Positions 1-51,646 are shown, numbered from the stretch's first letter. The stretch is 64,000 nucleotides of DNA from Bilabrum cf. latius (GCA_965178125.1 OZ237762.1:124001-188000); one strand, 5' to 3'. Program-made: numbers and translations. The notes: generated from the letters alone by a model not told the origin.

Positions 1-1623
1 AAGGATTATATTGTCTTTTTAGATGAGTTTAATAGTATCTTAGAACACTGTTTAAGTTCTACGACTTTATATGGTAGGCGACCAATGAGTTTCATTACTC
101 TTATTCGTGCTCTTACCACTTGTAAGTAGTTCATAGTAGCAGATGCTGACTTATCTCAAGATGCTCTATATTTCTTAGAATTATTAAAATTAGATTATCA
201 ATATATTAGGAATGACAGAAACAGGTTCAAGGGCACCAAAACTGTATTTGTTAATGACGAACAGACTTTTAGAGATGAGTTAATGAAACACAAGAAATTT
301 ATGCTTGCTAGTGATAGTAAGACAAAAGCTGATATAATCAATGAGTTAATTAGTCTTAAAATTATAGATAACGAGAAAGATAAGAAATTAAATAAAATCT
401 TAATACTTACAGCAGAAAGCGAAGACAAAGACTATGATATGGATATGTTTGATATCATTATCTTCTCACCTAAAGTCATTTACGGGATAGATAGCACTAT
501 GACTAGACCAGTCTTTGGTTATTTCAAAGGTCATACTATCACACCTCCCCAAATGGTTCAATAGCTTAACAGATGTAGAAACCCATCACATATCACTATA
601 TTTTTTGATTACTAGAAAGGACGATCTAGCACATATGAAAGTCTTTCACAAGTTAAATCTTTTATGGCTACCTCTTTAAAAGACTACGAAGAATTAGTTA
701 AATTTGTCAGTGATACATATCCCGACTTCAACGAGGTAGAAGTAGAAGACAAAGTAGAAGAAGAAATGAGCAAAGTTAAAATCATATTCAAAAAACTATA
801 TCGTAATTATCTTTACAAGGTAGATTGTTATAAGACAAACCCTAAATTACATATGATCAAGTAGTTAATTGATACCGGTTATGACGTGTCTTATGATTTA
901 TCTGTTAAGATCACCAGATGTAAGGATAAAGAAATCAAAGATACCATTAAAGAAAAACAACTTGAAAATTTTGATATTAATTGTCTTAATGTCAAGAAGA
1001 TTAATAAATATTTAGACTTAGATGAAGGTGATATTGACAAATACAAAGAGTACTTTATTAATAAAGGTAAGTTATCTAATTTATTTAATTTCAATAAATT
1101 CTTTAGACAAGATGATAAGCACTTACTTGTGAAAGCAATTAATAAAGGCGAGTTTGATATTATCAATGCTAAGTCTAGTTCTAGAAAATTAGTCTTACTT
1201 AATAAGATGATTGATACTTTAGGTCTTAAAAGAACTAATCTTGATTATAATATCAAAAAGAAAGTATTAGATCAAGACTTAACAGATGAATATAGGACAG
1301 TGTATGACTGCCAAAGAAGAAGTAAAGTTGACTTATCCACTGATAAAGGTCTTTATTACGAAATACTTAAAGTATATAAATCAATGTTTGGGAAAGACAT
1401 ATTTATGACTTGTAAGAAAAAGAAAATTAACTATGATGTAGAATTTAATTAGGATATTATTGATGAGATGGAATATATCTGGTCTAACAAGAAAAAGACT
1501 CGTGAAGTAGATATATTTGTTGATGATGAAGAGGTTCAATTACCCGATGAAGAGATAGAGGTTGACTTAGACCCCGCTTTATTTGTTGATGAGGATAATG
1601 ATCCACTAGAACAACAAAATTAA
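1..1623 (+). CDS. SF2 helicase, origin-binding-protein (herpes UL9-like) type; 5'-truncated; TAG=Gln
   Basis: Frame 1 is open from base 1 to TAA 1621-1623 except TAGs at 127, 562, 613, 862 and 1450. Motifs: YIVFLDEFNS (Walker B), CK*FIVADAD, FSPKVIYGID, QMVQ*LNRCR. Confidence 0.8.
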
Positions 1624-1685
1624 ATTATGACTTATTAATAAAAAACTTAATAAGACTTAATAATACATACCTTATATAAAATGAC

Positions 1686-2036
1686 TTAGTGGTCTCTTTT
1701 TGTCTTTTTAATTTTTTCTTCTCTCTTCTTCCTTTCACATTCACTTCTTTCAACACGATACATCAGCTCCTAGACGTGTTTCACTTGCTCTTCATATTCT
1801 AACTGTTCCAATGTACTTTCGAGTTTCTTGATAATATTGTCGAATTTAAAACTAAAGACATTCTAACGATAACCATCACCTTTGTCTTTTGGTTTCATCC
1901 ATACATATTTATCAAAGTGATTCTCAATACTTTTACCTATACTACTGACTACATCATCGACACCTACACCTTTAACAAGACATTCATCTATAAAATTTTG
2001 AGATAGTTCAATTTTGATATCTTCTTTATCTGACAT
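1686..2036 (-). CDS. Hypothetical viral protein, 116 aa (2 in-frame TAG)
   Basis: ATG 2036 follows the CGCCAAAAAATATCCACTATATATATA motif; reads through TAGs to TAA at 1686. Confidence 0.65.
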
Positions 2037-2037
2037 T

Positions 2038-2066
2038 ACTATATATATAGTGGATATTTTTTGGCG
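2038..2066 (-). promoter_or_regulatory. Putative viral promoter motif (CGCCAAAAAATAT)CCACTATATATATA; also at ~3088-3114, 13536-13564, 14507-14520 and 17091-17107
   Basis: Recurs within a few bases upstream of five ATGs (2036, 3084, 13568, 14501, 17087). Confidence 0.6.
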
Positions 2067-2204
2067 AAAGTAATAAACTAGTCTTAAGATATGACCGCCC
2101 GAAATTGCGGTAATATTATAGCTATTTAAGATATATTTCCGCAATTCTGGGCGCGTAGGTGTATTGAATTTTTAAATTTATTTGAATATAATATTTTTTA
2201 CCTC

Positions 2205-2527
2205 TTGGTGCGTTGTGGTCTTGGTCTAGTGATATCGTGATTGTTTCACAAAGTCAAGGTCGTGGGTTCGATTCCCGCCACTGACATCGCCGTAAGTCGT
2301 TCTGTAAGTCATTTTCATGACAAAGCACACGTCTTGCAAGTCTTTGAAGGGAGTTTGGATACTGTAGAAGTAGTCGTAAGTGGTTGTAGCAGACTTAGTC
2401 GTAAGACTTAATAGGGTTTCAGGTGCATCAGTTCACATTCTGGCCCCGCTACAACAATGACTTACGAATGACTTCGCCAAGTAGTCAAACCATCGGTATA
2501 ATTACTAGCTCAAAGAATTTTTTTTTT
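2205..2527 (+). ncRNA. tRNA-like, putative Pol III structured RNA
   Basis: A-box-like TGGTCTAGTG at 2222; T-arm GTGGG-TTCGATT-CCCGC at 2262-2278; imperfect long inverted repeat at ~2294-2313/2456-2474; T-run at 2518-2527; locally higher GC; no ORF. Confidence 0.55.
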
Positions 2528-2661
2528 ATTACATAGATATGACTTAATATTAATAACTTTATTATTAAGACATATGACCGCCCGAAATTGCGGTAATATT
2601 ATAGCTATTTAAGATATATTTCCGCAATTCTGGGCGCGTACCCGTATTGAGTTTTTAATAA

Positions 2662-3084
2662 TTAATCCATATTAGGGGGTTTCTTATACACGCTAGCAGG
2701 ATCAAAAATATCCACTGGAAAGTCTGCTTTGTGCCATCCCCATACTACTTTATAAATATCTGTGCTCGTGTCGTGTTCAACTTTATGATAAAAAATACAA
2801 TCATAAGCAATACCATTCTAATTACGCACCTCTTGCTCCATCTCTTCAATTATCTATCCTACCTTTAACTTTGTAAAGCCTCCTTCACTTACATATGTCT
2901 TTATATGACCTCTATTATTTACTTGTATCTAATCTTTATCTATTACAATGTCTTCAGGATCTCCTTCAAGTTCATCATCTAAGTAAACCTTTTGAGATTT
3001 AAGTGTTGGGTCTTCTCTATGTGGTAAGAATAAGAATGAATACTCCATATAAAGTAAGTCTTCACACGGTGATACTGCTGCCAT
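2662..3084 (-). CDS. Hypothetical viral protein, 140 aa (3 in-frame TAG)
   Basis: ATG 3084 has the same upstream motif as the ORF starting at 2036; ends at TAA 2662; bracketed by palindromic repeats. Confidence 0.7.
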
Positions 3085-3271
3085 AACTATATATATAGTG
3101 GATATTTTTTGGCGTAATATTTAAACTAGTCTTAAGGTATGACCGCCCCAAATTGCGGTAATATTATAGCTATTCAAGATATATTTTCGCAATTCTGGGC
3201 GCGTACCCGTATTGAGTTTTTAAATTTAGTCAATATTTATAACTTTTAAATATTAATTAATAATTTACGAC

Positions 3272-5158
3272 TCACATATTGAGCTACTTTCTAAGTTTCA
3301 TAAGTTGAGCCTTAGTTAGTTTCTTACCTCCACTGGTCAAAAGACTTCCACCACTAGTTAAAAGACCTGCTCCAACACGTTCAGCTAAGTCATTCACTTC
3401 ATCGGGTAAGTATTCACTTACTGCTTGTCTTGCTTTACGAAGAGCTGGTTTCACTTTATCAAATTTAGCTTTAGCGTTCTTTCCAAAGTCTACCACTTTA
3501 CGTCCTAAGTCTTTAGCTTTGTTAAAGGCTCTCTTAAAGAATTGCATCACTTTACGACGTCTTCCACCTAATACGTTCTTAGAGTAGTTCATATTAGAAA
3601 ATGTATAATTAGAAGGTTTAGCCACTTTCTCAGGGTCAACAGAAGCACTATCTTCACGCCATTCAATAGCGGCACCTCTAGTATTCACGATAATCTTGTC
3701 ATAGGCACAGAATAATTGAGCTTTATATCCTTGAGACATAGCAGCGGTTGGGGGTTCGTCATAGGCTACTTGAACACGAATACTAATAGGGTCAGCACTG
3801 TTGCTTTGAATAGTTTCAGGAGTATTTAAATCACTAAGTCTAAATAAGAGCCAGCCATTAGATCCGTATACTTTAGAAGCACCTCCTACAGTTACATCTA
3901 AGTTAGTAAAAGAAGCATACTCACTATTTGATCCATTTCTTTCACTAAGTCTAAAGATATCGTCTTGTGTAAGTTCTCCTAAAATAGAACCCTAAGACCT
4001 AAGTTGTACTTTAATATTGTTAATGGCAAGTGTTCTATGAGGTGTACCACTAGCTTCTCCATATTGAGAATCAACTAAGCACACAGCAAACCAAGAAGGG
4101 CAAGTCTAAAGTTGATAATTATTAAAAGTATGGACACCTTTAGTAGTGATAGGATTATCAAGTTTAGGCTCTTCATGTAGTTCAAAGTCAACAGAGTTGT
4201 AGAATATTTGTTTAGGTACTTTCTTCAAGAAGTTAAGATGAGTATTATAAGTAAAGACATCAAAATGGATCTAGCAATCGGATAAAGCAAAAGCATAGTC
4301 TCCATTCCAATCACTTGAAGTATTAAACATCTTATCAATTAAGTTATTTCTCATTTGTAAATTAACATTTAATTGTGGATGATCAACAAAAGGTCTAGCA
4401 TTACCACCCATCATATATTGGAAAGGACGTGCAAGAAGTGCTTCAGAGATTTCAATATGTAATTTGACATAGTCTTGAGTTGGTGTTACATTATTATTAG
4501 GTATTGGAGTATTAGCATCCACTTTTTCAAGTGTTGCGCGGTAATTCTTACCAGGACCGCGAGCTTCCATAATACTATCATCATTTACACCCCATTGAAG
4601 GACAGACTTAGCAAGACCATTTGCGGCAGTATTAAATTCCCAAGTGTTATCAGCCTAAAAGACAGGACTTATTTGTGCTAGAGTGGCACGGTCAAGACTT
4701 CTAGCTATTAAATTGACTAATTGATAAGGTGATGAACTACGAGATAAGTCTCCCATTTTAACTGTGGAACTTGTGATCATTGAATTTACCATAAATGTAG
4801 AAGGGGCTACCTTATTGACGATATCAGTTTGAGCTACTGCTCCATTGTTCTAACTATCATAGATGTATACGTCAAATGAAACTCTTAGACGGGGATTACT
4901 GTCAGTCATTCCTTGATTTGATGGCACGACAAAAGTGTAATTACTTCTAAATGCATTAGTTGCGCTAGAGTTACCACCATCTGGTTCATAGTGGTTTTGG
5001 AACTTGGAAGAGTATCCAAGGGTAGTTCCTAGAGTAATAGCTTGACTATCACCCACAAAGTTGAGTTTTTCGTCAGCTATTTGAGTTACTGGTAGTTCTG
5101 AGACGTCATCTACGACTTTGCTTTGTGCTGCTACAGGTACATTATCCATATCAGACAT
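3272..5158 (-). CDS. Virophage major capsid protein, 628 aa (TAG=Gln)
   Basis: Track ORFs 4850-5158, 4271-4570 and 3284-3739 are in one frame separated only by TAG. Virophage-MCP-like segments (ISEALLARPF, NNYQL*TCPSW, LSERNG) and a basic C-terminal tail with GG sites; TGA at 3272. Confidence 0.88.
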
Positions 5159-5200
5159 TATAAATATATTAAGACTAAAGATATTTATTTATTTTTTACT

Positions 5201-6127
5201 TTAAGTTATTAACTTTTTACTTTTAAATAGAGCTTTTATATTAAGTCCTTGTCCAAAAGTAAAGGGTATTTCGTATAAGTTTCCAAAAGTATCTCTAAAA
5301 TACGGTACTATACTATAACTATTAAATGCTGATCTATAGAACTATTGCCATCTATGATTTCCTCCACTACTAAAGTTTATTTTAATAAAACTCGTTCCTG
5401 TTGTATTGTCTATCTTGAAATCACTTAAGATATTTTCACTTTGTATCTCTGTACTAGATGTACTTTTATATGATGGCGTAAATTCTGGAAGTATTGGAAG
5501 TGATGGACTAATAATTTGAATATACTCCATAGTAGGAAACTAATCTAAGGTAGAAGCACTCTATTCATTATATCCATCTAATAGATTTATATAAGTATCA
5601 CTCTTGATGTCTTTACCTTCATCGTCATATTCAAATGTCTCAAATATAGAGAATAAAGGAAAGTTAAAACTTAAAGTCCACGCACTTGTAAAAGCCGCTA
5701 AACGGGTGAAACTAAAAGTTTTAGTCTTACCGTGATATTCAAATACTATACTATCAGTTGGAATACTAGCATCTCCACATAAATCACTAAGAGTATTATT
5801 AAATTCATTAGATAGGGTCTTAAGACTATAATATAACGGCTTAGTTAAGACAATATTACGAGTGTAAGTAGTTCCATCACTCTTCTTCACAAACGACATC
5901 TTATAAATTGACTAATTATCGCTATTCTTTACTTCTTTACTTGCTACAAATAAAGGAATACGACATTTAAGAGTCCATCGGTCAAGTGATAATAAGTAGT
6001 TTTGTGAATTTGTCAAGATATTACCTTGACGCTGTTCATGTATTGATACTGGTCTATTAGTATTAATAGATGTTATAGTATCCTATGAGTTAATATAAAA
6101 GATATCTGGTTCTTGAATCTCCACCAT
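5201..6127 (-). CDS. Virophage penton (minor capsid) protein, 308 aa
   Basis: Lies directly upstream of the MCP. Motifs: NYLLSLDRW..RIPLFV, IISPSLPILPE, NILSDF, RDTFGNLYEI, IKALFKSK. Several in-frame TAG; TAA at 5201. Confidence 0.82.
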
Positions 6128-6487
6128 TCTATAACATTTATCAAGAAAATAAGTCTTGTCTAATGCCCCAAATTGCGGTAATATTATAGCTATTTAAGAT
6201 ATATTTCCGCAATTCTGGGCGCGTACCCGTATTGACTTTTTAAAAAAGTTTTTATTAATTATTTGACTCATTGAAAAAATCCAATATTCCGAAATTTTAA
6301 AAATTTAGTATCTTAAGATATAGTATAATACCAGCGCCCCAAATTGCGATAATATATTAGGATATTAAGATATATTTCCGCAATTCTGGGCGCGTACCCG
6401 TATTCATTTTTATATTTTAGTCTTTTTAATATGGCCACCTTATAGATATCAATTTTCAATATCTAAAAATTTATGGTATATGTCATA

Positions 6488-7036
6488 TTAACTAATTATC
6501 AAAGTAATAAGTTCATCATTATCTAGTCCTCCTCCATACTTTTTAAAAGCCTTCTTTAATTGACTATTAAACTAATCATTCGTCAAGTGATGGAATAATA
6601 TCCTGAGCACACACCACCTCCCGCATGTGGCAGAGTTATTTGATATTAATTGATTCTTTTGATTTGAATAGTCAACATTAATACCAGCATCTAATACGTG
6701 ATCTATTAGAAGACTACTTCTATCATATAGCTTCTATGGGTCTATGACTCCTCCTACGACTGGAATATGAGTATCAGGTAATTGACCATAACTATCCCAA
6801 AAATAAAGAGTATTCTTTGATTTATTAAATATGACCGCAGTATAATGACCGCTCATTGTTGCTCCTTCTACTAAGTTAGGATAATAAAGGACAAATAAAG
6901 GATTTTCATCTAGAAATTGTCTGATGTTATTAGTATCACTTATTTCTTCATACATTATAACTGGTATATGCTACTTTGTAAATGTAAAGTATAGTCTTTG
7001 TACCTCTTCAGGACTTAATGCAGTGGTTATATCCAT
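6488..7036 (-). CDS. Virophage maturation cysteine protease, 182 aa
   Basis: Catalytic triad motifs SGHYTAV, FWDSYG and ATCGRWCVLR; reads through TAGs to TAA at 6488. Confidence 0.88.
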
Positions 7037-7055
7037 ATACTTAATACTAAGAAAA

Positions 7056-8123
7056 TTAATATACGAACATCTATTTAGGACAAGTGATAAAATTATACGT
7101 CTTATTAATACATAGCCATCTATTACCTTCTCCAAACAATTTATAAACACGATTTATAAGACTTGCATCAAATCCTAAATATGCTTTCATTAAATATTTG
7201 CTAAATTTCCATAGATTTCTCTTAAATAAAATAATATTATGACTTTCCATGACTATTGACCTAGTATTCGCATAATCATTCGTTAAATGACTTATAACTA
7301 TCATATTTGTTGAGCTATGTCTTCCAACTTCACCTATACGCTTAATTAAGAATAACGCCCTCTACTTTTTATCCCCGTTTAAGGCTTCATAATCATCAAA
7401 TACCACCACAGAAGGACCCTATTTTGCCCATTCTTCATACAATGGAGTAGTGGTAAATGATGCCTTAGTCTTGTCTTTACTTGTTGGTTTCATTCTTTCT
7501 ATCTCTATCTCTCTTTTAATTAATTCATGAGGTTCTAATGACTTCTTTTCCTACCTAAAGAATATCTTTTCTTCTTTATATTTCCTCATTAAGTCATCAT
7601 AACTATCGTTTCTATCTACTGCTACTAATTTATCAATATCAATAAAATTACCATATTTTAAATAAGTTGGATTTGTTTCCTGTACTGGTGTAATGACTAA
7701 AACCCTCTTCTTTGGAATGAACATATGATAATACTTGAGTAAAGACTTAGCAATATAAGACTTACCAGCACCAGCCTAACCACTTAAATAGTGTATTTGT
7801 CTTTTGGTCTCATCATCAAAGAATGGGACTATTTCAAACTAACTCTTATCATCTATTCTTAACTCGTTAGTCTTTCTAACTAGTTTTTTATTTCCATTCA
7901 CTAGCTTACACATCTCTTCACGTAATGCTTTTTTATTCTTCTCATATTTAATTGCTCTCTTTCCATAATACTCTTCAAGTAAATCATCACTTATATCTTC
8001 TGGAGTTATGACTTTTTCCCCTACATCTTCACTAAAAAAGACGCTTTTGTTCCTCTTCTTGTGCTTGTATTCTCTTAAAGCAACTAAATGACTATTTGGT
8101 ATTTCATCGTATGATAATGACAT
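7056..8123 (-). CDS. FtsK/HerA-family (A32-like) DNA packaging ATPase, 355 aa
   Basis: Walker A G*AGAGKS (TAG at 7776-7778), Walker B VVVFDDYE, VGRH motif; TAA at 7056. Confidence 0.9.
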
Positions 8124-8268
8124 TATATACTATATGTTAATATTTATTATTTTTCTAATAATAAGTGGGTTTAAAAGGTATATTGTGAGAAGTAGCCATT
8201 TCAAATATTCATTTTAGAGTGCACAGTCTTAAGAATATGATTAAAATATCATATAAATATATAGAATT

Positions 8269-8790
8269 ATGGATCACAAACTTCTAATTTCAAAAAGATA
8301 TATTAAATCATTTTATAAGTACTCATGTAAAGTTAATTAGTACTATAAGAAAGCAGAAGAGTAGCGTAATATGATGACAACTGATAGAGTAGATTGCTAT
8401 ACTAATTATATGACTTGTCTGCTAATTGCTCGTAAGTATAGAGAATGTATTATCAATTGCAGTAAAAAGTACTATTGTGATATGAACTTTACGTTAAATG
8501 ATAACGGATATGTATCGTCTTCTTTGGATCACTTGAAAACACTTAACTTTGACTATGCTAATTCAATGAAAATAAATGAATGTATAGAACAATTTAAACA
8601 ATCCGTTGAGTGGGAAAGGTTATTTAAAAAAGACTTTTTTCAAATGTAGTTAATTTATGAATATCTAAAAATTTTCAGACTTAAGTGCTATTTACATGAC
8701 ATACGACCAGATAATCCCCTCCATCCGACAGAAACAGTTAATAAACTTAACGAAGAAGACATTGACGAGCTATTTTATAGTGACTGGTGA
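8269..8790 (+). CDS. Hypothetical viral protein, 173 aa
   Basis: ATG 8269, three in-frame TAG, TGA at 8788-8790 immediately before a palindromic repeat. Confidence 0.65.
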
Positions 8791-8984
8791 GACGACCGCC
8801 CCAAATTGCGGTAATATTATAGCTATTTAAGATATATTTCTGCAATTCTGGGCGCGTAGGCTGTTAGAGGTTTTACATTTTCGGGTCAATCTAATGAAAA
8901 TCTCACAATATAGGGCGCCCCAAATTGCGGAAATATATAAGTATCAAGAAAATTATGTCTGCAATTCTGGGCGTTTAGGTGTAT

Positions 8985-9803
8985 TCAATTATGTGAAACT
9001 AATTTAACGACCCTTTTATTGAGCTAGTCTTCTAAATATTTAATTATAATACTTACATCTTTACTATTGAACGTATTAAAGTATTGATATACTGGTTTAA
9101 TAAGTCCTAATTTACGTACATCATTCTTAAGTCTATCAATAACTCTATTTTTTAATTTAAATGGAACTGTTGGAAGTAATAAACTTTTTAATCTTGTAAT
9201 AGTCAAGTAAAGAAAGCCTACATCGGGATTCTTTATAAGTTGTTCAATCTCTTCCTGTTTCTTCTTTTGCCCTAATTCGTCATATATAACATCTAGTCTT
9301 TTTAATATCTTGAAATATTTTCGTTCTTTTTGTAAGTCTTTTATGTCATCTATCATCCTATCTGCTACTTGTTTAGGCTTCATTTTCAATATCTTACCTC
9401 CAATATCATATAATATACTAACCTCTTCAATATATCCAGTATAGACCCAACTTTCAACGAATATCATAGGATTATTCTACTATTTTAAAGATTTTAATAT
9501 TTTAGGTCTATTAGTATCAAGAAATGTATCTAAAGAGACGCCATTATCATCATATTCAACGTTATAAATATGTATTAATCTACTACCTCTTAAGGTCTTT
9601 AATTCATTTATAACACTATTGACATCAGACAATTTAACGGGAGAGTATAGGTCTATGTCTCCAGCCCAAAGTGAAAGCATATTATGAGTAAATGAATATG
9701 AACCATTTAAATAAATATCACTTCTATTTATTTTAAAAGACTTGAATATCTTATTATCAAATCGTGAATAATACTTTAGCTACTACTTTGTTAATTTAAC
9801 CAT
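8985..9803 (-). CDS. Putative nucleotidyltransferase-fold protein, 272 aa
   Basis: NGS-x13-DID motif (NGSYSFTHNMLSLWAGDIDLY); joins track ORFs 9480-9680 and 9024-9467 through TAGs; TGA at 8985. Confidence 0.6.
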
Positions 9804-9837
9804 ATATTAATAAGAAATATTATAGTTCTTTATTATA

Positions 9838-10281
9838 ATGGACGATTTCATAAGACAAAGACTATAGCAACTAGGTAAATCACCCTCTAATGCCAAAGTC
9901 AACAATTTAAAAGACGAATTTAAGCAAAAACTACTTGAATTATTTGAAGACTATCAAATGAATGGTGTTCAAGGTGGTTCAAAAGTTGGACGCTTTTTTA
10001 AAAAAGTAGGTCGTAAATTCAAGAAAGTAGGGCGAACAATTAAAAAAGGTATTAAAAGTAATGTAGGAAAGGCAATACGAACAGGTCTTAAGTTTGTAGC
10101 CCCTGAAGTTGGTGTCCCTCTTGATGCTGCACTTAAGACTGTAGGACTTGGAAAGGCTAAGCGTAAGAGGAAACCTAATCCAAAAGCTAAAGCAAGAGGT
10201 AAATTAGTGAGTGCGGTAATGAAGAAGTATGGCGTAAGTCTAGGAGAAGCAAGTAAAATATTAAAAGAAAATGGTATGTAA
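9838..10281 (+). CDS. Basic putative virion core / DNA-condensing protein, 147 aa
   Basis: K/R-rich after VQGG|S (possible protease site); C-terminus RGKLVSAVMKKYGVSLGEASKILKENGM; TAA stop. Confidence 0.65.
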
Positions 10282-10320
10282 ATTTAATAATATTATCTAT
10301 TATCATAATATAATTATACG

Positions 10321-11763
10321 ATGTCTAAAAAAAAAACAGCAGTATTGGAAGACTTACTCGATGGACTTGTGGAAAGTAGAGCCCCTACAAGTCAAGCAAG
10401 ACGAAAGGTAAGAAACGAAGAGAGAGCCATAAGAGCAGCTATAGGAGAAGCTAAACGAAAACAAAAAATTCAATTAGAAGAGGACTTTATGCCATTAGAA
10501 GAAAAGAGAAAATTAAAAAGAATAGCAAATCTTATGAAAAGGACTTTAAAAAGAGTTAAAGATAACAGTAAGAAAGGTAAAAAGTATAAAGTAGCAGATA
10601 TAGATCAAGTTGTAAGACTAGCTAAAGATAATGAACTACTTGATGAAGATGCTGAAGCTATTGCTAAGATGATATAGAATATTCCATATATGAACTCATC
10701 TAATACTCTATTTCAAAAAGGTAAAGCTGAGTCAAAACTTAACGACGCATTAAATAACTTATTTATTGAAGCAGAAGAGATAGACAATTTACCTAAAGAT
10801 GTCAAAGACTTAGAGAATGACTTAACAGTAGACTAGTTGAAGAAGTTTCTTAAAGAGAGAGGTGTAAGTGATTCAACTTTAAATGGTCTCTCTAAGGCTC
10901 AACTTAATTCAATGGCATCAAGACTTGTAAAAGTTAGACAAAGAGCAAAAGGAACACAAATAGTACCTCTATTAGAAAGATTAGGAGATAAAAAGTCAAA
11001 AGGCTATGCTTTGGAACGATTACGAAGCCAAACTGATCGAGTTAAACTAAAAAGAGATGTACTTAATAAAAGAATGGAAGCAATAAATGATATTTATAAA
11101 ACAAAAGCCACATCTAAAGCACCAGTACTAAAAGATAGACTTAAAGCACTATTAGGTGATGAATATGATGGTGTGCCAATAGATGATATGTAGTATTATG
11201 ATTTATAGAGCTTATTTCAAGATATTAAGACTGGAAGACAATCGGGACTTGACAGTAAAACTAGATTTGTAAATTTAAATAGAATCAAGTTTGATGACGC
11301 AAAGAAAGATATTGAAAGACAATTATCACTAAGAAAAAGACAACCAAACCCATTTAGTCGTGCAGAACCGTCAGGAACTCCACTTAAAGAAAGACTTAGA
11401 CGAGCTAAGGAAAAAGATCCAGACTTACGAAGAGAAGCCGCATTAAGTGATGTAATGAATGAAGCTGCTGAATAGATAGCAAGAGGTAATGAACCTTTAG
11501 ATGATGAGACAGAAGGGACACTATTAGAAAGACAACCAGATGGAGAATTTGTAGCAAGCGATGCAGGTGAAGATCTTGGTAAAGGTCAAGAAGCAAGAAC
11601 AAGAGCAGCACGAGCAGCACAAGAACGGGAAGAACAAGAACAAGAAGCACAAGGTCAATCATCTAGTGGAGCAAGTGAAAGTAAGACTGGTGAAGGTTCA
11701 GGTCTTAATAAGAGACTTGATACTCTAATATCTTGGTTAGATTCAAGATTAAGAAGTCTTTAA
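10321..11763 (+). CDS. Charged helical protein with a SAP-like motif, 480 aa
   Basis: Single frame broken only by TAG; LTVD*LKKFLKERGV resembles the SAP consensus; TAA at 11761. Confidence 0.7.
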
Positions 11764-12006
11764 ATGGTATATACTATAATATTTTAATTTAAAAATATTA
11801 CATTGTAAGAGGTGGCTATATTAAAAATGACTAAATTATAAAAATCAATACGCCTACGCGCCCAGAATTGCGGAAATATATCTTAATATCCTAATATATT
11901 ATCGCAATTTGGGGCGCTAGTATTATACTATATCTTATACTACTAACTTTTTAAAATCTCGTAATTTAAAAAAAAAATATCTAGTCTAGCTAATATAATA
12001 TAAGTA

Positions 12007-12729
12007 ATGGCAGGAATATACAATCTCTTAAACAAAAATGAATATGAATTAAAGAGTAAGTCTATTGAAGTAGAATCAATTAAAGCAGAAGGCTTTGATG
12101 GAGCCGCTAACTTTGGACTTAACTTCAATGGTCAATCACTACCCTATATTATGAGTGGTACTAATGAAGATGCTAAGTCTTTCACATGGAGAATAGGTAA
12201 AAACTCAGCATCAGCAGGTGCATCTATCTCAATTAATGTCGCAGGTGATGGAACTCAAACCAGTACTATGACAGCAACCAACTTCTTATCATTTACCGGT
12301 ACACATGTTGCATCTTGTAGTGATGTTGCTTCTAGTTTACCAGCTGGTATTGGGTCAGTGGTTACTCTTGATAGTGTAGTTAATAAAGGACCCACAACTA
12401 ATGAATATGTCGTAAGTCAAGCATCTCAACATTCACCACCTTTTGGAGTATATGTAGGAGAACACCATGATGATGGTAAAGTACTTGTGGCATCTTTAGG
12501 TGATGGAGCTGTGAAAGTAAATAAAAATGGAGGAGATGTAAGTGCGGGTGACTACTTAATAAATAGCTCTGATAGTGGATATGTCTACGCGCCTAATCCT
12601 CAACCAGTCTCTGTTGATTAGACTATTGTAGCAAAAGCTCTAGTAGATGAAGACTTTTCAAGTGGTACTTCTACTGATGCTAATGGAGTAGAATATAAAG
12701 TCGTACCTTGTATTTTCTTAACAGGATAA
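12007..12729 (+). CDS. Fibre/tail-like protein with a C-terminal chaperone-like domain, 240 aa
   Basis: FTGTH...SLGDGAVKVNKNGGDVSAGDYL...TIVAKAL...PCIFLTG resembles the C-termini of phage/NCLDV fibre proteins. Confidence 0.6.
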
Positions 12730-12772
12730 TTGAGTTTAATTATAGAAATATCTTTTTTATTAATATAATAAA

Positions 12773-13411
12773 ATGGATGGAATCAGTTCAAGCAGTGTCG
12801 TTGTAGGAGGTTTAAGTGTCTTACTACCTCTAGCATACTCTGGTGGTATGTCTTGTTGGTAGTGGTTATGGGATAAACCTTTACATAAACGTAAAAAAAT
12901 ATGTATCTGTGTGCCTGAAGGTAGTGGTAAGTCTACCGCTTGTCAAATATTACGGTCTAGTTCTAAAGACTGTTTACTTGTTGATTTAGATAGTACTCTA
13001 GGAGTATATGTCTAGGAGCCCGAATTACTTATGAAACTAGACGAATGTAAGTTAAAAAGTGATTGGGGTAATTATAATATACTTAATAGAAAAGCCAGTA
13101 AAGAAGCCCTTCAATGGGTAAAAGATAACTGGTTGAATGAAGGTAGCGAGAAGAGAGTAATATTCTTTACTAAAGAGTTAAGTCTAGCTAATGAGTTATT
13201 TAAAAAAGAAAGTATAGTTGTATGTCTTCCATCTAATTCACTATTCTAGAAGACTTTAAAGAATTAGAAAGTAGATAAATAGAAGTCTATGTTAGAAGAC
13301 CGTAACTCTTATATCAAAGAGTTGAACCCTTCTAGCTATTACATTTATAATACTTACGAATAGCTTCACGATAAATTGAGGAATTGCCTCTAGTTAGGGT
13401 ACCAAATATAA
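12773..13411 (+). CDS. Small P-loop NTPase/kinase with an N-terminal hydrophobic segment, 212 aa
   Basis: ICVPEGSGKST Walker A and LLVDLD; 7 in-frame TAG; TAA at 13409. Confidence 0.7.
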
Positions 13412-13567
13412 TACAAATAAATACAAAATAATACAAAAGTCAATACGCCTACGCGCCCAGAATTGCACAAATATATCTTGAATAGCTATAATATTTCCGC
13501 AATTTCGGGCGGTTAGATCCTAAGTTTAATTATTCCGCCAAAAAATATTTACTATATATATATAGAA

Positions 13568-13912
13568 ATGAACTTTAATAATATTTATAACATAAAAAGT
13601 TTGAACAATATATTAAAAAAGGTAAAGACAGCTTTTGATCAATTTTTTGATGGAAAGGACCTTCGTATTTGTGAAGTTGAAGAGCTAAAAGAAGTAGAAA
13701 AAGACTAGATTATTACCTACGAAGATATTAAGTCTATCCTAGGTCTTAAAATGGCTATGTTGCCTAAATATGAAGGAATGTTTTAGATGGCGCAAGATTA
13801 CAAAGATTTTCGTATTATTAATGGCTTACTTGATTTAGAAATTATGAATGAGTTAAAACGTGTGGAAAAATCAATACGCCTACGCGCCCAGAATTGCGAA
13901 AATATATCTTGA
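13568..13912 (+). CDS. Hypothetical viral protein, 114 aa
   Basis: Preceded by CGCCAAAAAATATTTACTATATATATA; its TGA stop lies inside the downstream palindromic repeat. Confidence 0.6.
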
Positions 13913-13994
13913 ATAGCTATAATATATCCGCAATTTGGGGCGGTCGTATCTAACCTGTCAATTTGTATTTTTATAATTAAAATACATACTGATA

Positions 13995-14501
13995 TTACAA
14001 TTTATAATCTAGACAAATATTGTCTGGTTGTTTAGAAGTATTACATAATAGACTTAACTTTTGATCTATTTCTTTTTCTACTCCTGTTTTAGTCTTTTCG
14101 TCTTCTTGTTCCATCTCTTGGACAGTCTCGTTGAATTTATCCACATCACCGTAAGTCTTTATAAATACTTGTTTTTTCTCGGACATCTTGATTTTGCTAT
14201 CCTCCACATATTGCTCTCCTTCAATATTACATAATATATTATTAAGATGGAGATAACTTTCTGCTTTGTCATCGTGATCTGTGCTTAATACTTCAACATA
14301 CTTTGTTTTAAATCTAAGTTCCAAGTTATGACGTATTTCACTCATATGTTTATGGATCTCTTTTGGGTCTTCTATTTCGCTCTCTTCATACATTGCTATT
14401 ATAGTACTTATGACATCACTAGGGTTTTCGTCTCGTATTTTAAGTATTAAACTAAAGACATCAAAGTATTCATTTAAAAACTTCCAAATTGTGTTTTTCA
14501 T
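13995..14501 (-). CDS. Hypothetical viral protein, 168 aa
   Basis: Open ORF with TAA stop; CCACTATATATATA upstream. Confidence 0.7.
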   Translation of the reverse strand: MKNTIWKFLNEYFDVFSLILKIRDENPSDVISTIIAMYEESEIEDPKEIHKHMSEIRHNLELRFKTKYVEVLSTDHDDKAESYLHLNNILCNIEGEQYVEDSKIKMSEKKQVFIKTYGDVDKFNETVQEMEQEDEKTKTGVEKEIDQKLSLLCNTSKQPDNICLDYKL

Positions 14502-14520
14502 TTACCTATATATATAGTGG

Positions 14521-15201
14521 TCATTTTAATAAGATATTTTTAAACTTTGTAAAGTTATCATGAATTTTATCACTATCACCCCAGCACACTTTAGCATACC
14601 ATAAGTTGCTGTCATACATATCGGTCTCATCAAAATGAAGATGTCCTAATACTCGCTTTCTCATTTTATCAGCGTGTGATTTACCTCTTCTTAAAGCATC
14701 AGGATAAGTCTAAGTATTCTTTTTGTTAAAATATACCTTTGTATCATTAATCTCTACACAATAAACATATTCAGGTTTATCACTCACTGTAAGATCACTA
14801 ATATTGATTTTTGGTTTTGGTTTCTCTTTAATTGGTTTCTCTTCAATGACTTCACTCACTACTTCACTACTTGTATCACTATATGTATCATTCAAATAGT
14901 CTTCCTCTTTATTATCCTCTATGTCTTCGCTATCTAATTCAACATCTTCCAATATAGCCTATTGTCGTTCTAATTGTGGAGGTTTTAACTAGATAGGTTC
15001 TATTTTAGACGGTTGTCTCACTAAATTTATAGTTGCTATCTCGTCCCCTTCATCATCTATTTCACCCTATAAACTTGAATAATGCTTGTTAATCCATAAC
15101 ATTTTTAAGTCATCACGAGACCACTTGTACTTTTCACTTAACTTGACTACTCTTTTTAGAAGGTCTTTATTTTTGTATCTTGTTATATTTAACAATTCCA
15201 T
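14521..15201 (-). CDS. Acidic hypothetical protein, 226 aa, with a possible degenerate DUF5754-like C-terminus
   Basis: ATG 15201 reads through TAGs to TGA at 14521. Confidence 0.65.
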
Positions 15202-15431
15202 ATACTTATTATAAATAATTTCTTTGACTTTGTTTTATATTAATATGGTAAATACTAGAAAAATTTAATATTTCAAAAGTCGTATCTATACACTGGCTAA
15301 CATAAAATGACATAATTATAAAAATCAATACACCTACGCGCCCAGAATTGCGGAAATATATCTTAATATCCTAATATATTATCGCAATTTGGGGCGCTGG
15401 TATTATGCCATAAAGTATATTACTAGATTAA

Positions 15432-17087
15432 TTATCTCTATCTATCAGAATAGTCTTTCGCAAGTGGTCGTATTTGGTCTTTCCCATAATCCTGTTCTAA
15501 TTTCTTACGGGTAATCCATTCATTAAACTTATTAGAATATCCCTTATATTTGACTAAATATTCAATAAGTCTATCTTTATTTTGTCTTTTATCTAAAAAC
15601 TTCTCTATTGTGTCTGGTTCTACTTCTAAACCTTCAACATCATCAATTTCGGGCTCTTCACTTTCTTTGTCTATGTCATCATTTACCTTATCTTCGTGTT
15701 CTACATTCTCTATCTTCTATAACTGTGAAGCATTAAAGAATCCAGTAAGAGGTTCTCCCTCTTTGTCCATTACTTTATATTTAATCCTCTACTTAGGATT
15801 TCTTGGTTTGGTCTTCTATCTAACAGTGAAGACTTCTCTAGACCAATTGAATAAATTCCCTTTAAACTTGTTCTTCTCAAGTAATACTCTAACTCTATCC
15901 CCTACATTAAGATCTTTATCATTCCCGTCAAAATTATTTGATAATTTCTTATTTTCAATTCTAGATCTAACTACTTCTAAATTTTCAGGTTTCATTGCTT
16001 CTATTGGAGACATTCCTATAGTGTTGTGTTTTCTCTTATTATAAGCTCTTACTAGTCTCTATAATGACGTATGCCAAACACCATCACTGTCATTCTTTAT
16101 AGCAAAGTCTTTTCTAATCTATTCTTTTATAGTCCTGTTAAGTCTTTCAACTGCACCATTAGACTATGGATTTCCTGCGATGGTGAATAGTGGTTTTATG
16201 TCATTGTCATTCATAAATTTAATATATGCCTCTTTATTAAACTCATTATCACTTAACATAACAGTCGGTTTTCTCCAATTAGGTTTCTTAAATAGTTTCT
16301 TCATCTCACGAATTATATTAACTAATGTCTTATCTTTTAATGAAATACTCCATAGGTATTTTGTGAATATATCCATTATATTTAATATCCAATTATAGCC
16401 GTCATTAGTGTCTGAATACTTTTGCATGTCTATTAAGTCCAAGGCGTAAATTGAGAAAGGCTTAGTAGGTACAAAAGAACTTACTGCTGACTGTTTAGGT
16501 CGTTTTTTCGTGAGCTAGTGTAGCATTTGGCCATTTAACCACTTTTCAACTTGTCTTCGTTTTATTCTCCTATCTTTTTGTCTAGCTAGGTCATATAACG
16601 CATCACGACTGACTACATTACCTTCTTCATAATATAGTTTCTTTAATATTGGCTTATATTTAAATTCGTCTTTCTTTGGTTTGTCTTCTATTTCTATTAA
16701 TTTACCGGTTGGTTTATTAAGTTTTTTTGTCTAAGCTTTAGTCATCTTATAAAAAAGGCGAACAAGGTTAGACTATTGAACACTAAAATGAACTTTATTT
16801 ATTAGGTTATACAAGGTAAAATAGTCTCCATCCTTCTATATTGAGTTAATAATCCCACCTCTTCTAAACAATGGCTTTCCCTTGATATTTGAGATGTACG
16901 ATATATAAGAGTATAAAGGTAGCTTTTTAATACTAGCTTTGGTGGTTGGCACCTCTTCAAACCCTTTATCAAGTAGTCCCTTAATAGTGGCGTCTAAATC
17001 ATCACTATCTTTTTGATTTTTTGTTGGCTTATCACCGTACGTGTATGATATTTTACCTCTAGTGTATGTCTTGCCTTTGTTTGACAT
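15432..17087 (-). CDS. Retroviral-type (rve) integrase with C-terminal chromodomain, 551 aa
   Basis: DLIDM, MDIFTKY, LSDNEF, P*SNGAVERLNRTIK, YNKRKHNTIGMSP, LNVGDRVRV; chromodomain IEKFLDKR...EYLVKYKGY...NEWI; TAA at 15432. Confidence 0.92.
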
Positions 17088-17185
17088 ATCTATATATATA
17101 TAGTGGCGAAAATAACTTAATAGAATAAAACACACATTGACTTAAAGATAAAACAACTAATAACAATATAAACCAACCTTAAACA

Positions 17186-17851
17186 ATGGTAAATTTCTCA
17201 AATGCAAAGATATACAGACTTTACTCACTTAATGATCCTTCAAAAGTATATTATGGCTCTACTTGTTAGACATTGAGCTAGAGAAAGGGAGGACACACAA
17301 AAGACTATAAGAATTATAAGAAAGGAGAATATCCTTTTATTACTTCATTCATTATTTATGACTTAGGTGATGTAAAAATTGAATTAGTAGAAAAATGTCC
17401 GTGCAAAGATAGAGAAGAGTTAGGCAAGATTGAAGGAGGGTATATCAGGAAATATAAATGTGTCAATAAGTGTATTGCAGGACGAACTAGAAAAGAGTAT
17501 TACAATGAGACAAAAGAATAGAGATAGAAAAGATGGAGAAAATACTATGATGATAATAGAGGCAATATAGTCGCTAAGCAAAGACTATACGCCGAAAAGA
17601 ATAGACATATTATAAATGAACGTCAAAATCTAAAGTATTCGAATAATAAAGAAATGATGCAGTAGTATAGAGACAAAAATAGAGACAAAATAAAAGAAAA
17701 TCATAAAAAGTACGAAGAAAATAATAAAGAAAAACTAAAAAAATATTCTCTTGACTACTATCACAAGAATAAAGACAAGATAAACGAAAGACGAAGACTT
17801 AAAAGAAAGCAATTAAAAGAATAGAAGTCTAAGGTTAAGACATCCACTTAA
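17186..17851 (+). CDS. GIY-YIG endonuclease, 221 aa
   Basis: AKIYRL...VYYGSTC*TLS*RKGGH...IELVEKCPCKDREEL...EGGYIR...CVNKCIAGRT; TAA at 17849. Confidence 0.88.
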
Positions 17852-17908
17852 TTATATTATTAAATATATGTAATTTAATAGTATATATTGGCGTTAATTA
17901 AACGAGTA

Positions 17909-18442
17909 TTACTTCTTATATTTCTTCTTTTTAGAGTAGCATGTAAAGCAATACCAATAAGTGGTATCAGGTTTTAATAGATACCTCTCGCACCTTTTAC
18001 ACTATTTGTATCCTTTCTTTTTGTAATAGCAACTAAGACAAGTCTTTTTCCAAGAGGTCTTTTCAATCCAGTCTTCGCAATCAGTGCATCTCTTTTTCTC
18101 TTTTAATATGTCTTCATTCATTTCGTGTTTGATGGACTTAATATGACTGCTATAACTTGACTTTTTAACAACACAAGAGCATACATCACAAGTCTTATAC
18201 ATACAAGCCTTATACACATCATGATCCTTTTCGAATGTGTTATTAATACATTCAGAACCTAATTTAAATATATCACCAGTTGGGGGATACTCAACGAAAT
18301 GAACTTCCTTAATTTGGTGATCACAGATACACTTTCCGTCTTCTTCTCTAGTCTCTCCAGCTGGTATTAATAGAGGGGCTATCTTATTCCAGTCATTAAT
18401 CTTTAGCTTATTGATTATGAAGTTACGACATTTATAGCACAT
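17909..18442 (-). CDS. Multi-zinc-finger/ribbon protein, 177 aa
   Basis: CICDH...LGSECI, a C2H2-like CDVC..HIKSIKH and repeated CxxC; TAG read-through gives YK*CKRC; TAA at 17909. Confidence 0.72.
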
Positions 18443-18599
18443 TATAATATAGTATATACTATAATAATATATTATTTTTAAGTCTAATTAAACGAGATGT
18501 CTTAAGCTCGATTCAAATTTGGGCGCCCGAAATTGCGGTAATATTATAGCTATTCAAGATATATTTCTGCAATTCTGGGCGCGTAGGCGTATTGACTTT

Positions 18600-19007
18600 T
18601 TAATTTAATATTTTTAATTGTTTCAGTCTTGCGTCCACTTTAGACCTATAGTCATCTAACCATTTTTCCAAAGTATCCCCTTTAACATACCTTTTTACAT
18701 CTAATACTCCATTGGCTAGTTTTGTTAAGTAGTCCTTAATAGCATTATCACTTCCCCATAAGATTTTATGACTGTGATATTTTGAGCTATTAGTATCGGT
18801 AGTCTTCCCGTGTCTTCGGTAGTATAGGCGTCGTCTTTTAGGGTCAATATGGTTATTATCTCCATACTTACCAATCAAATCAAAGTATTGAGCATATCGT
18901 GCATCACCAAAGCTAGTGATATACTTACCATTTTTGAATACATCATATTTCTTATTTCTACGAGTAGAGGGTTTATATTTGAATCCATCAATAATTATCT
19001 CATACAT
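18600..19007 (-). CDS. DUF5754-like protein typical of NCLDV/virophages, 135 aa
   Basis: STRRNKKYDV...SFGDARY..Y...HIDPKRRRLYYRRH...SKYHSHKILW. Confidence 0.7.
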   Translation of the reverse strand: MYEIIIDGFKYKPSTRRNKKYDVFKNGKYITSFGDARYAQYFDLIGKYGDNNHIDPKRRRLYYRRHGKTTDTNSSKYHSHKILWGSDNAIKDYLTKLANGVLDVKRYVKGDTLEKWLDDYRSKVDARLKQLKILN

Positions 19008-19015
19008 AATATATT

Positions 19016-19225
19016 ATGATACAAGATTTATTAACTTAGTATATTGTCGGTAAGACTTGTAAATTAGTTATTAAATAGGTGAAGACTACCAAGACATATC
19101 ATAAGACAAAATCATTTGTTAAGGACTAGTTAGAAGAAGTACTCAATACATTGATACAAGTTAAAGGACATTCTAAATATGAACACAAGATCAAATGGAC
19201 CACTTCAAGTGGTATGACTTAGTGA
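19016..19225 (+). CDS. Possible small viral ORF, 69 aa
   Basis: Open only if TAG=Gln (4 TAG); ends in TGA; no recognisable motif. Confidence 0.35.
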
Positions 19226-19296
19226 ATATGTAAAATTGAATACGGGTGAGCGCCCAGAATTGCAAACATAATTTTCTTGATACTTATATATTTCCG

Positions 19297-19371
19297 CAAT
19301 TTGGGGCGGTCATATCTGGAGATACAATTTGGGGCGGTCATATCTGGAGATACAATTTGGGGCGGTCATAT
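19297..19371 (+). repeat. 28-bp tandem triplication of one palindrome arm
   Basis: CAATTTGGGGCGGTCATAT(CTGGAGATA) at 19297, 19325 and 19353. Confidence 0.9.
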
Positions 19372-20638
19372 TTATTATTAGTTATTTTAAAATATCTCGT
19401 CAAGTGGTTAAGTCTTTTTGTGATATCCCGTTAAGTGGTCAATAAAATGAACGGTAAGTCAAAAAAATTAATCAAAATAAAGAAGTAGTTGATTATTAAT
19501 TATTGAAGACACCTAAGCGCCCAGAATTGCGACAATATCTCTTAATATCCTAATATATTTCCGCAATTTCGGGCCGTCATTTCTGGACATTTAATATAGC
19601 ACATACTAGAAATATCTTTATTACAAAATTACACCTCTATAAGATAACTATGTCAAAATTAACAAAATATAAAACTCAATACACCTACGCGCCCAGAATT
19701 GCGACAATATATCTTAATATCCTAATATATTACCGCAATTTCGGGCGCTAGTATTATACTATACCATATTTAATTATCCTATATTTTCCATTTAATCTAG
19801 TGATTAATCATTTCAAAGTAATACACTTGACATAAACCAGTTCATTGAGTCATTTTAAAGTCATCGTCAAAACATTTATCATTTTTAAGTTATCCCGCTT
19901 TGTATTCCTTTATATCATATACTCAAACAAAGGACTTTAACATATTTAAAGAATTATGAAAAATAAAAATCAATACACCTACGCGCCCAGAATTGCGGAA
20001 ATATATCTTGAATAGCTATAATATTACCGCAATTTCGGGCGATAGATTAAAGGATGTATTTTTAAGGGGATACCCTTATATTTGAAGTTTTGAAGAGATG
20101 ACATATAAAAGACTTTATAAAGTGATTAATATCTCCTTCTAGTTATATTTAAATATTCAATTATTTAAGTATAGATTGACAAGTAATAAAAAAAGAGATA
20201 AATTAAGTTGATATATTAGTTTAGTTTTATTTATTAATTTAAATTTTTCATTGGAAGTATTAAAAAGACTTTAATACTTCTGTCAATCTCTTTAAGTATT
20301 TATTTAGTTATTTTCTAAAGTGGTAAATGTCAATTGATACTTAAAACCAAATCATAATATAAAACTCAATACACCTACGCGCCCAGAATTGCGAACATAT
20401 ATTCTTAAATGACTATATATTTCCGCAATTTCGGGCGGGCATATCCTAAGACTTAGGCTAGGGATTCACTCAACAGATTAAGTAAAGTAAAGGTCTAACA
20501 GATAGACATTAACGGCGCGAAGGTATTAAATTAGGTAGATATATGAATAAATAGCTATTAAATTATTATGTTCAAGTGAAGGACATTATGAAGGACTACG
20601 GCTTAAGATGTTGTGAAGTGGTTAATATTGACCTCTTA

Positions 20639-20739
20639 TGTTATCCGCCAAAATGTGTGTAGTTTTTATATAAGTAAACTCTATTTCTACTATATAGTAG
20701 AAATAGAGTTATCATAACTCCACATTTTGGCGGATAACA
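20639..20739. repeat. Terminal branched hairpin of the virophage
   Basis: Perfect 19-bp inverted repeat at 20639-20657/20721-20739 enclosing a perfect 34-bp palindrome at 20677-20710. Confidence 0.9.

Positions 20740-35803: not shown

Positions 35804-35838
<35 letters not shown>

Positions 35839-51611: not shown

Positions 51612-51646
<35 letters not shown>

Follow-up and report, generated by a model that had tools for sequence, protein, structure and literature searches.

A likely endogenous mavirus-like virophage with UAG as a sense codon, most probably Gln, in the virus and in its protist host

Genes and features of the integrated element

A 64,000-nt stretch of the Bilabrum cf. latius assembly (GCA_965178125.1, OZ237762.1:124001-188000), called the window here, contains an integrated virus at its left end. 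Our overall reading, which we regard as likely, is that of an apparently intact endogenous mavirus-like virophage, with UAG used as a sense codon (most likely Gln) in both the virus and the protist host. The GC content of 1-20739 is 31.3%, compared with 62.8% for 20740-64000, and the GC step is located at 20700-20800. Positions 1-20739 are read as the right-hand 20.7 kb of the element, which is truncated by the window start. The full element is estimated to be ~24.0 kb (1532 + 1720 + 20739), according to the contig joints described below. The initial annotation had placed a virophage at 1-19225. The virophage holds, whereas the end is located at 20739, with a probable terminal inverted repeat (TIR) at 19208-20739, and the start is cut off by the window; the left end of the element, together with any target-site duplication, is located outside. 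The features of the element are as follows; the TAG codons are in frame.

1-1623, plus strand: replication helicase/primase-type protein, C-terminal 540 aa, open at the 5' end; 5 TAG; phrog_4913 'replication', E 9.8e-17
3272-5158, minus strand: major capsid protein (MCP), 628 aa; 6 TAG; mavirus MCP (PDB 6g45), E 3.3e-16
5201-6127, minus strand: penton (minor capsid) protein, 308 aa; 5 TAG; mavirus 6g41, E 1.9e-12; Sputnik 3j26_N, E 4.5e-5
6488-7036, minus strand: putative maturation cysteine protease, 182 aa; 3 TAG; phmmer matches to 62 open reading frames (ORFs) of IMG/VR virophage loci
7056-8123, minus strand: FtsK/HerA-type packaging ATPase, 355 aa; 6 TAG, including that of the Walker A loop at 7776-7778
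8985-9803, minus strand: conserved virophage ORF, 272 aa; 5 TAG; 8 phmmer matches, 57 after profile iteration (virophage-locus ORFs)
9838-10281, plus strand: conserved small basic ORF, 147 aa; 1 TAG; 9 phmmer matches, 37 after iteration
10321-11763, plus strand: charged ORF, 480 aa, open only if TAG is sense; 5 TAG; weak SAP match under the cut-off
12773-13411, plus strand: P-loop ORF, 212 aa; 7 TAG against 3 CAA; weak AAA_18 match under the cut-off
15432-17087, minus strand: rve integrase with a C-terminal chromodomain, 551 aa; 11 TAG, including that of PxSNG at 16164-16166
17186-17851, plus strand: ORF with a GIY...YYG-like N-terminus, 221 aa; 6 TAG; motif seen by eye only, nuclease label unconfirmed
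18600-19007, minus strand: DUF5754-like ORF, 135 aa; no TAG; Pfam DUF5754 26.7 bits against a cut-off of 27.4
19016-19225: 69-aa ORF with a TGA stop
19208-20739: probable right TIR (1532 bp); non-coding, a 103-nt repeat being present five times
20639-20739: nested palindrome at the element tip, with perfect inverted repeats of 19+19 nt around 17+17 nt, ending in ...CA

The assignment as a virophage rests on the capsid genes, as both the MCP and the penton match solved mavirus proteins. Residues 68-623 of the MCP match residues 53-608 of 6g45, i.e. nearly the full length, and the MCP scores 30.4 bits with Pfam MCP_V20_C (cut-off 27). The genes of the capsid, penton, protease and ATPase are consecutive on the minus strand at 3272-8123. 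For the protease, Pfam Peptidase_C57 gives 16.3 bits, which is under the cut-off, and no PDB match was obtained. The ATPase has 1509 homologues at E <= 1e-3, and Pfam AAA_10 and AAA_22 are slightly under their cut-offs. When the 20 element proteins were compared by tblastn with 80 IMG/VR virophage loci, only the ATPase and the protease were widely matched; the ATPase matched 80 of the 80 loci, which had been fetched with a 6-sequence ATPase alignment. According to the rve integrase (Pfam rve 32.7 bits, cut-off 32.6; Chromo 30.3 bits, cut-off 25.1; 35 homologues) and the mavirus-like genes, the element is assigned to the integrating kind of virophages.

Residues 4-322 of the helicase/primase-type protein align to positions 596-920 of the 1290 positions of phrog_4913, and even with the E threshold relaxed to 10, Pfam gives no match for 1-1623. 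The N-terminus of this protein is most likely encoded in the ~1.7 kb of unique sequence that precedes the window. No ORF of a protein-primed polymerase was detected within 1-20739 by the Pfam and PHROG searches. The ORF at 17186-17851 had been labelled GIY-YIG initially, and this label found no support from Pfam (E up to 10) or PHROG. A dozen ORFs of the element are without any family. The MCP has no match in IMG/VR, nor in the metagenome contigs of JGI (Joint Genome Institute) with a single protein or an alignment as the query; neither the MCP nor the ATPase has a match in the phage collection. Only three close relatives were found by the word-based MCP search.

TAG codons in the viral genes

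If TAG is taken as sense, 20 non-overlapping ORFs of 114-628 aa with an ATG start are obtained, and together they occupy 84% of 1-19225. TAG occurs in frame 76 times, in 18 of the 20 ORFs, and in-frame TAA and TGA are absent. The ORFs end in TAA (15) or TGA (5). TAG makes up 27% of the stop triplets in six frames, and the log10 P of finding TAG at 76 of 76 positions is -43.8. In the re-prediction with TAG as sense, which had been proposed at the outset, the coverage of 1-19200 by stop-to-stop ORFs of at least 100 aa rises from 0.44 in the standard code to 0.88. If TAA or TGA is taken as sense instead, the coverage is 0.71 and 0.47, respectively. The longest stop-to-stop ORF is 235 aa in the standard code and 638 aa with TAG as sense.

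The initial annotation stated that the viral genes are interrupted by TAG only, and the counts above agree with it. Its 21 ORFs with 15 TAA and 6 TGA stops are reproduced once the 69-aa ORF at 19016-19225 is added to the 20. The single TAGs that it singled out are also correctly placed: codon 308 of the integrase is located at 16164-16166, codon 116 of the ATPase (Walker A) at 7776-7778, codons 28 and 32 of the ORF 17186-17851 at 17267 and 17279, and codon 188 of the helicase frame at 562.

TAG codons in the flanking host genes

The GC-rich flank shows frames of 840-2008 aa when TAG is sense. Ten host frames contain 55 TAG, 354 CAG and 88 CAA, with no TAA and no TGA in 10,442 codons. Six of the host frames bear eukaryotic domains.

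22265-23377, minus strand: ankyrin-repeat frame; 3 TAG; Pfam Ank_2, E 7.1e-45
24427-27102, plus strand: FG-GAP repeat protein frame; 5 TAG; Pfam FG-GAP, E 1.8e-40; integrin matches
27826-31623, minus strand: Reeler-DOMON-cytochrome b561 frame; one TAG, at codon 698, between domains
32351-35851, plus strand: polycystin-type channel frame; 10 TAG; Pfam PKD_channel, E 1.7e-22, at residues 523-745
36007-38871, minus strand: PP-loop ATPase frame; 4 TAG; Pfam ATP_bind_3, E 3.3e-31, in two stretches
56922-61124, minus strand: inositol polyphosphate 5-phosphatase frame; 5 TAG; Pfam Exo_endo_phos2, E 6.8e-53

The standard code splits the cytochrome b561 frame into 27823-29529 and 29530-31623, and domains that belong together are separated. 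The TAG codons 584 and 633 of the polycystin frame are located inside the channel domain, and the alignment with the polycystin-2 structure continues through both. Likewise, TAG codon 461 of the 5-phosphatase is located inside the catalytic domain, and the alignment with OCRL/INPP5E continues through it with conservation on both sides. According to these counts and alignments, TAG has a sense meaning in the host flank as well, and TAA and TGA remain the stops.

The FG-GAP protein consists of six near-identical 69-aa repeats, and TAG is located directly before the FG motif in four of them. The remaining two repeats have Trp and Leu at this site, each one base change away from TAG.

The host frames at 43883-52441 and 53254-61124 show dipeptide and low-complexity runs (GA, GM, GT, GH, KG, EK and SP). 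These frames extend up to 2008 aa without a Pfam domain, and the opposite strand is also open over long distances. Part of the host frame length may be intron or non-coding GC-rich DNA that is read through. Among named homologues of the polycystin, the best belongs to the stramenopile Cafeteria roenbergensis, with 36% identity. According to this low identity, the host is not Cafeteria itself.

Amino acid assigned to TAG

In all amino-acid tests TAG was treated as X, and Gln was not assumed. In the pairwise-column test, 20 proteins were compared with database homologues and the 80 loci, seven relatives with more than 70% identity were dropped, and the log-odds per codon were summed. The 15 TAG columns give 8.3 nats for Gln, -0.1 for Lys and -2.5 for Arg, and 49 of 55 sense codons are correctly assigned by the same procedure. 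In the Codetta-like profile test, hidden Markov models were built from relatives only for nine families, and positions with a posterior of at least 0.9 were used. The nine TAG columns give 6.2 for Gln, 2.7 for Glu, 2.3 for Ala, 2.1 for His, 1.0 for Lys and -5.4 for Leu. Gln is enriched in seven of the nine columns, and 39 of 47 sense codons are correct. The 16 columns of CAA give 14.2 for Gln and 7.6 for Glu. The tabulation of residues opposite TAG in the manner of Codetta, as suggested initially, therefore places Gln first in both column tests. Fast MAFFT columns of the MCP and the penton against relatives of ~20% identity had looked hydrophobic; these were replaced by the posterior-filtered profile test. 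The close relatives P0004-6 and P0039-42 (proteins) were excluded from the counts. PDB comparison of the FG-GAP repeats and the protease was uninformative on the residue at TAG.

Clear Gln columns are found at integrase 308 in PxSNG (Gln in 14 of 33), integrase 457 in QLxK (5 of 6) and protease 155 (11 of 25). The initial statement that the TAGs sit where Gln is conserved is thus right for about three columns, and most of the others are variable. Taken together, these results make Gln the best-supported, though not proven, meaning of TAG in the virus, and we consider this assignment highly probable.

In the host, a Gln encoded by CAA or CAG is located within two residues of TAG in 15 of 55 cases (0.273). 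The corresponding rate is 0.276 for true Gln and 0.191 for Lys, the next residue. The rate for non-Gln residues is 1427/9945, and host TAG differs from the others with Fisher p = 0.011. Several host TAGs sit in Gln-rich repeats. This context suggests, weakly, that TAG is Gln in the host also. The claim that the virus matches the code of its host is accordingly borne out for TAG as a sense codon in six host genes, and the Gln identity in the host is weakly shown.

Ends and copies of the element

Contigs of four public runs (X1, X4, X5 and X6; two studies, no more than three samples) were compared to 1000-20900. None of the sequencing runs listed was of RNA. Each of the four runs covers all 30 bins. 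The contigs of the element are fragmented into 1-4 kb pieces, with variants and with pieces fitting two places, as several similar copies would lead one to expect. In X1 and X4, two contigs each depart at exactly 20739 into a different GC-rich flank. These contigs indicate that 20739 is the true tip, and that at least one further insertion site exists. Loose ends were observed before 19207 in X1 and X4, and an opposite-strand joint 1000/19207 was observed in X5 and X6. In X5 as in X6, this joint would put the inner edge of a left inverted repeat 1720 nt before the window begins. From the loose ends and the opposite-strand joint, we infer TIRs of ~1.5 kb.

The window and the contigs differ at 277 positions, and 64-91 letters differ between copies in the integrase region. 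Among the 40 differences shown, none touches a TAG codon, and 20 of the 27 shown genic differences are synonymous, each being judged singly. The excess of synonymous differences fits purifying selection on the TAG-containing frames. As none of the differences shown hits a TAG codon and those in genes are mostly synonymous, decay is very unlikely, and so is consensus error, a possibility named at the outset; the contigs of the four runs from two studies also agree.

Owing to the palindrome at 20639-20739, the sequence of the opposite end (TGTTATCC...) recurs 100 nt in from the tip. It could be a hairpin tip or a small insert derived from the end. At 16936-18263, the summed contig depth is 64-196 in X1 and X4, compared with 326-1068 in the flanking bins and 326-1462 in all other bins. 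This segment, which carries the GIY-YIG-like and Cys-rich ORFs, may be missing from some of the copies, contig depth being a poor measure.

Proposed explanation and alternatives

We propose the following explanation. The rve-chromodomain integrase would have inserted the virophage into the nuclear DNA of a protist whose genome is GC-rich and gene-dense. A host tRNA-Gln with the anticodon CUA presumably reads UAG, and the release factor would no longer recognise UAG. The virophage lineage would have been in such hosts for a long time, and TAG would have become the second most used Gln codon. The virophage presumably depends on a giant virus, which would have to tolerate UAG as sense; the sole hint of this dependence is the two promoter-like motif classes described below.

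The codon counts are compatible with this explanation. With TAG counted as Gln, the Gln codons of the element are CAA (122), TAG (76) and CAG (10), so that TAG accounts for 37% (76/208), compared with 11% (55/497) in the host frames. The suggestion that TAG serves as an AT-rich Gln codon agrees with these counts, TAG being the AT-richer partner of CAA in an element of 31% GC. TAG is scarcer in a group of four genes, the capsid gene and three presumed late genes close to it (13 TAG to 55 CAA/CAG), than elsewhere (63 to 77; Fisher p = 0.0002), as expected for a less well decoded synonym. The uneven use indicates long evolution under the code, not recent drift after insertion. The initial wording was that the virus has adopted the code of the host; the shared code stands, and it is better to say that the virus has evolved for long in hosts with this code.

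Several observations weigh against this explanation. The Gln margin is moderate (3.5 nats over Glu in the profile test), and homologues of one family are not independent of each other. The TAG columns are for the most part variable, with Gln modal in few only. At high confidence in the profile test, penton 72 favours Leu (0.32) and MCP 389 favours Phe (0.18), and X191 of the ATPase is His in all five nearest homologues. In the host, polycystin 584 faces Tyr/Trp/Trp, and polycystin 633 faces Arg/Asn/Ala, with Lys in human PKD2; codon 461 of the 5-phosphatase faces Lys or Asp, and the sister FG-GAP repeats have Trp or Leu. The relatives at 80-99% identity (P0004-6 and P0039-41) print Gln at nearly all TAG sites. 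This Gln probably comes from a gene caller that translates TAG as Gln, and it is counted here as no evidence. No tRNA was found in the window by ARAGORN, and neither a suppressor tRNA nor a release factor is present in the window. Finally, none of the contigs shown spans 20739/20740, where the element meets the satellite.

The alternative that survives best is that TAG is sense in both virus and host and encodes an amino acid other than Gln, such as Glu, Lys, His, Leu or Tyr. The variable columns are mostly polar, with Lys, Glu and His common, Glu ranks second in the profile test (2.7, compared with 6.2 for Gln), and the two viral columns with Leu or Phe and the host columns with Tyr/Trp, Lys/Arg and Leu/Trp point in the same direction. 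However, Gln is first in both column tests, and the composition of the proteins is in accord with it. In the seven proteins with homologue sets, Gln encoded by CAA/CAG occurs 63 times, compared with 97.0 expected; the shortfall is 34.0, and TAG occurs 37 times. Lys is in excess by 57% (250, compared with 159.1 expected), and Glu, Leu and Tyr are at 1.01-1.06 of the expectation. Ala, Pro and Gly are also short, as expected at 31% GC for residues with GC-rich codons; these aside, Gln alone has a deficit that matches the TAG count. Also, Gln neighbours are as frequent around the host TAG as around true Gln. We therefore regard another amino acid as improbable.

It is very improbable that the virus alone is recoded like the code-15 phages with a suppressor of its own, the host using the standard code and the TAGs of the flank coming from pseudogenes, introns or chance ORFs. 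This would require that six host genes are broken, and by TAG only among the 10,442 codons, whereas the alignments with the solved polycystin and 5-phosphatase structures continue through TAG with conservation on both sides. No tRNA is seen within the 20.7 kb. In favour of this alternative, a tRNA could be located in the remaining 3.3 kb at the left, which is beyond the window, GC-rich DNA does yield long chance ORFs on both strands, and the host evidence on the amino acid is weak. A decaying or mis-assembled insertion, with the TAGs as premature stops or consensus errors, is hardly tenable: endogenous virophages often show false stops derived from assembly, according to the available parts of two reports (PMC10120064, PMC8547959), and the element is multi-copy and fragmented in short-read contigs, but one of the three stop codons only is found in frame, 76 times, the four runs from two studies agree with mostly synonymous genic differences, and the Gln shortfall equals the TAG supply.

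Under the reading of a virophage that shares a UAG-sense code with its host, the element would be readable only in cells with this rare code. Virophages are translated by the host cell, and they are transcribed and replicated in the factory of a giant virus. A virophage that is unreadable outside UAG=Gln hosts would therefore mark the host range of itself and of its helper. Any giant virus supporting the virophage would have to function under the UAG-sense code, and the shared code and the promoter motifs could be a handle for finding the hosts of TAG-recoded giant viruses. The result would add a UAG-only code, which is rare among eukaryotes, in a host recognisable from ordinary assemblies. 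Standard-code gene callers fragment 18 of the 20 genes, so that such elements would be scored as degraded in surveys of endogenous viruses. More tentatively, the host may belong to an undescribed UAG=Gln lineage of GC-rich heterotrophic protists (nearest named relative Cafeteria), whose system of host, virophage and giant virus is isolated by its code from standard-code hosts; this is possible, though we would not put it as the likelier case. If it is true, the giant viruses of the tripartite system share the code by necessity.

Promoter-like motifs and repeats

The 15-mer CCACTATATATATAG is located at 2039-2053, 3087-3101, 14506-14520 and 17092-17106 (minus strand), 3-5 nt before the ATG of four genes including the integrase. 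Four matches were found with at most one mismatch, compared with none in 100 shuffles. CCACTATATATATAG looks like one promoter class of the element. The second motif, AAATATCT, is located at 5179-5186, 11975-11982, 12746-12753, 14532-14539 and other positions, ~15-35 nt upstream of the capsid gene and three other genes, with eight matches compared with 1.9 expected. It looks like a second, late-like promoter class. We take its TCT core to be reminiscent of the late motif of mimivirus-like helpers. A further candidate, AAATATCCACTATATATATAG, had one exact IMG/VR match (L081), which is within a standard-code coding region and was taken as chance.

With at most two mismatches, the GC-rich 16-mer CCGCAATTTCGGGCGG, which forms one half of an imperfect palindrome, is found at 13 sites in 2095-20438 (0.05 expected). 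The sites are confined to the intergenic DNA or the TIR of the element, and none is present in the 43 kb of host DNA. CCGCAATTTCGGGCGG may be a terminator or a regulatory hairpin.

On the host side, a satellite abuts the element and is followed 2 kb further on by another repeat.

20740-21459: GC-rich 82-bp satellite, detected by Tandem Repeats Finder; period 82, with 8.0 copies over 20740-21396 and 5.3 copies over 21025-21459
23487-23631: 55-bp repeat, 2.6 copies

In Halocafeteria, virophage insertions near repeats or chromosome ends are described in the available part of a preprint (bioRxiv 10.64898/2026.07.28.741278).

Comparison with known systems

The published systems are compared here from the available parts of the respective papers. 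No link between virophages and UAG was found in the literature, and supplements (e.g. the Codetta results of PMC12220804 and Table S6 of PMC10120064) may hold such cases. For the code comparison, 74 of the 80 IMG/VR virophage loci with a length of at least 6 kb were used. These loci use the standard code with a median coverage of 0.94, and the maximum gain with TAG as sense is 0.11, compared with 0.44 for the element.

The element resembles the endogenous mavirus-like elements (EMALEs) of Cafeteria burkhardae and mavirus (PMC8547959; 6g41, 6g45). In both cases AT-rich DNA of ~20-25 kb is located in a GC-rich, gene-dense flagellate genome. The mavirus-type MCP and penton, the ATPase, the protease and the rve integrase are common to both, as are the multiple copies and insertion sites and, probably, the long TIRs. 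In contrast, TAG is sense here, whereas the term 'genetic code' is absent from the available text of the EMALE paper (PMC8547959). The element also has a helicase/primase-type replication protein, with no protein-primed polymerase in the part seen, and its host (63% GC) is an organism other than Cafeteria.

The virophages and polinton-like viruses of Halocafeteria seosinensis (Haro et al., bioRxiv 10.64898/2026.07.28.741278) are also similar. Those virophages are ~24.6 kb with TIRs, have 35% GC, which is below that of the host, and are present in many copies, often subtelomeric. There, however, the host has 47% GC, the ORFs were predicted by default Prodigal, and the words 'codon', 'UAG' and 'TAG' are absent from the available text. 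The default Prodigal and the lack of these words imply the standard code in that system, as far as that text goes.

Iotanema and Amoeboaphelidium are examples of lineages in which UAG only is reassigned to Gln. Such a reassignment is described for a few eukaryotic nuclear codes (Panek et al., 2017, PMC5304391, available part). These codes are like the present one in that UAG is sense and UAA is a stop; here UGA is a stop too. They differ in that no virus is reported for these lineages in that part of the paper, and the best named match of the present host is a stramenopile. In the code-15 phages, crAss-like and Lak (PMC9523058, bioRxiv 10.1101/2021.08.26.457843), TAG is also Gln and is also unevenly distributed over gene classes, according to the sections at hand. 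The hosts of these phages, however, use the standard code and suppressor tRNAs are frequent, whereas here the host shares the code and no tRNA is found in the part seen.

A precedent for the shared code is that of Streblomastix strix, in which endogenous viral elements use the TAA/TAG=Gln table of the host (Bellas et al., 2023, PMC10120064). The authors take this sharing as a sign of long-term association, in the part of the article considered. In both systems, an integrated virus of the virophage/polinton-like supergroup shares the nonstandard nuclear code of its protist host. In Streblomastix, Gln is encoded by TAA as well as by TAG, and the capsid genes are of the polinton-like 'Metamonada' group. 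Here, by contrast, TAG only is reassigned, TAA is the main stop (15 of 20), and the capsid is of the mavirus type. The principle is thus already in print for the polinton-like group with another code (PMC10120064), and what is new here, relative to the available parts of these papers, is a true virophage with a UAG-only reassignment common to the virus and its host.

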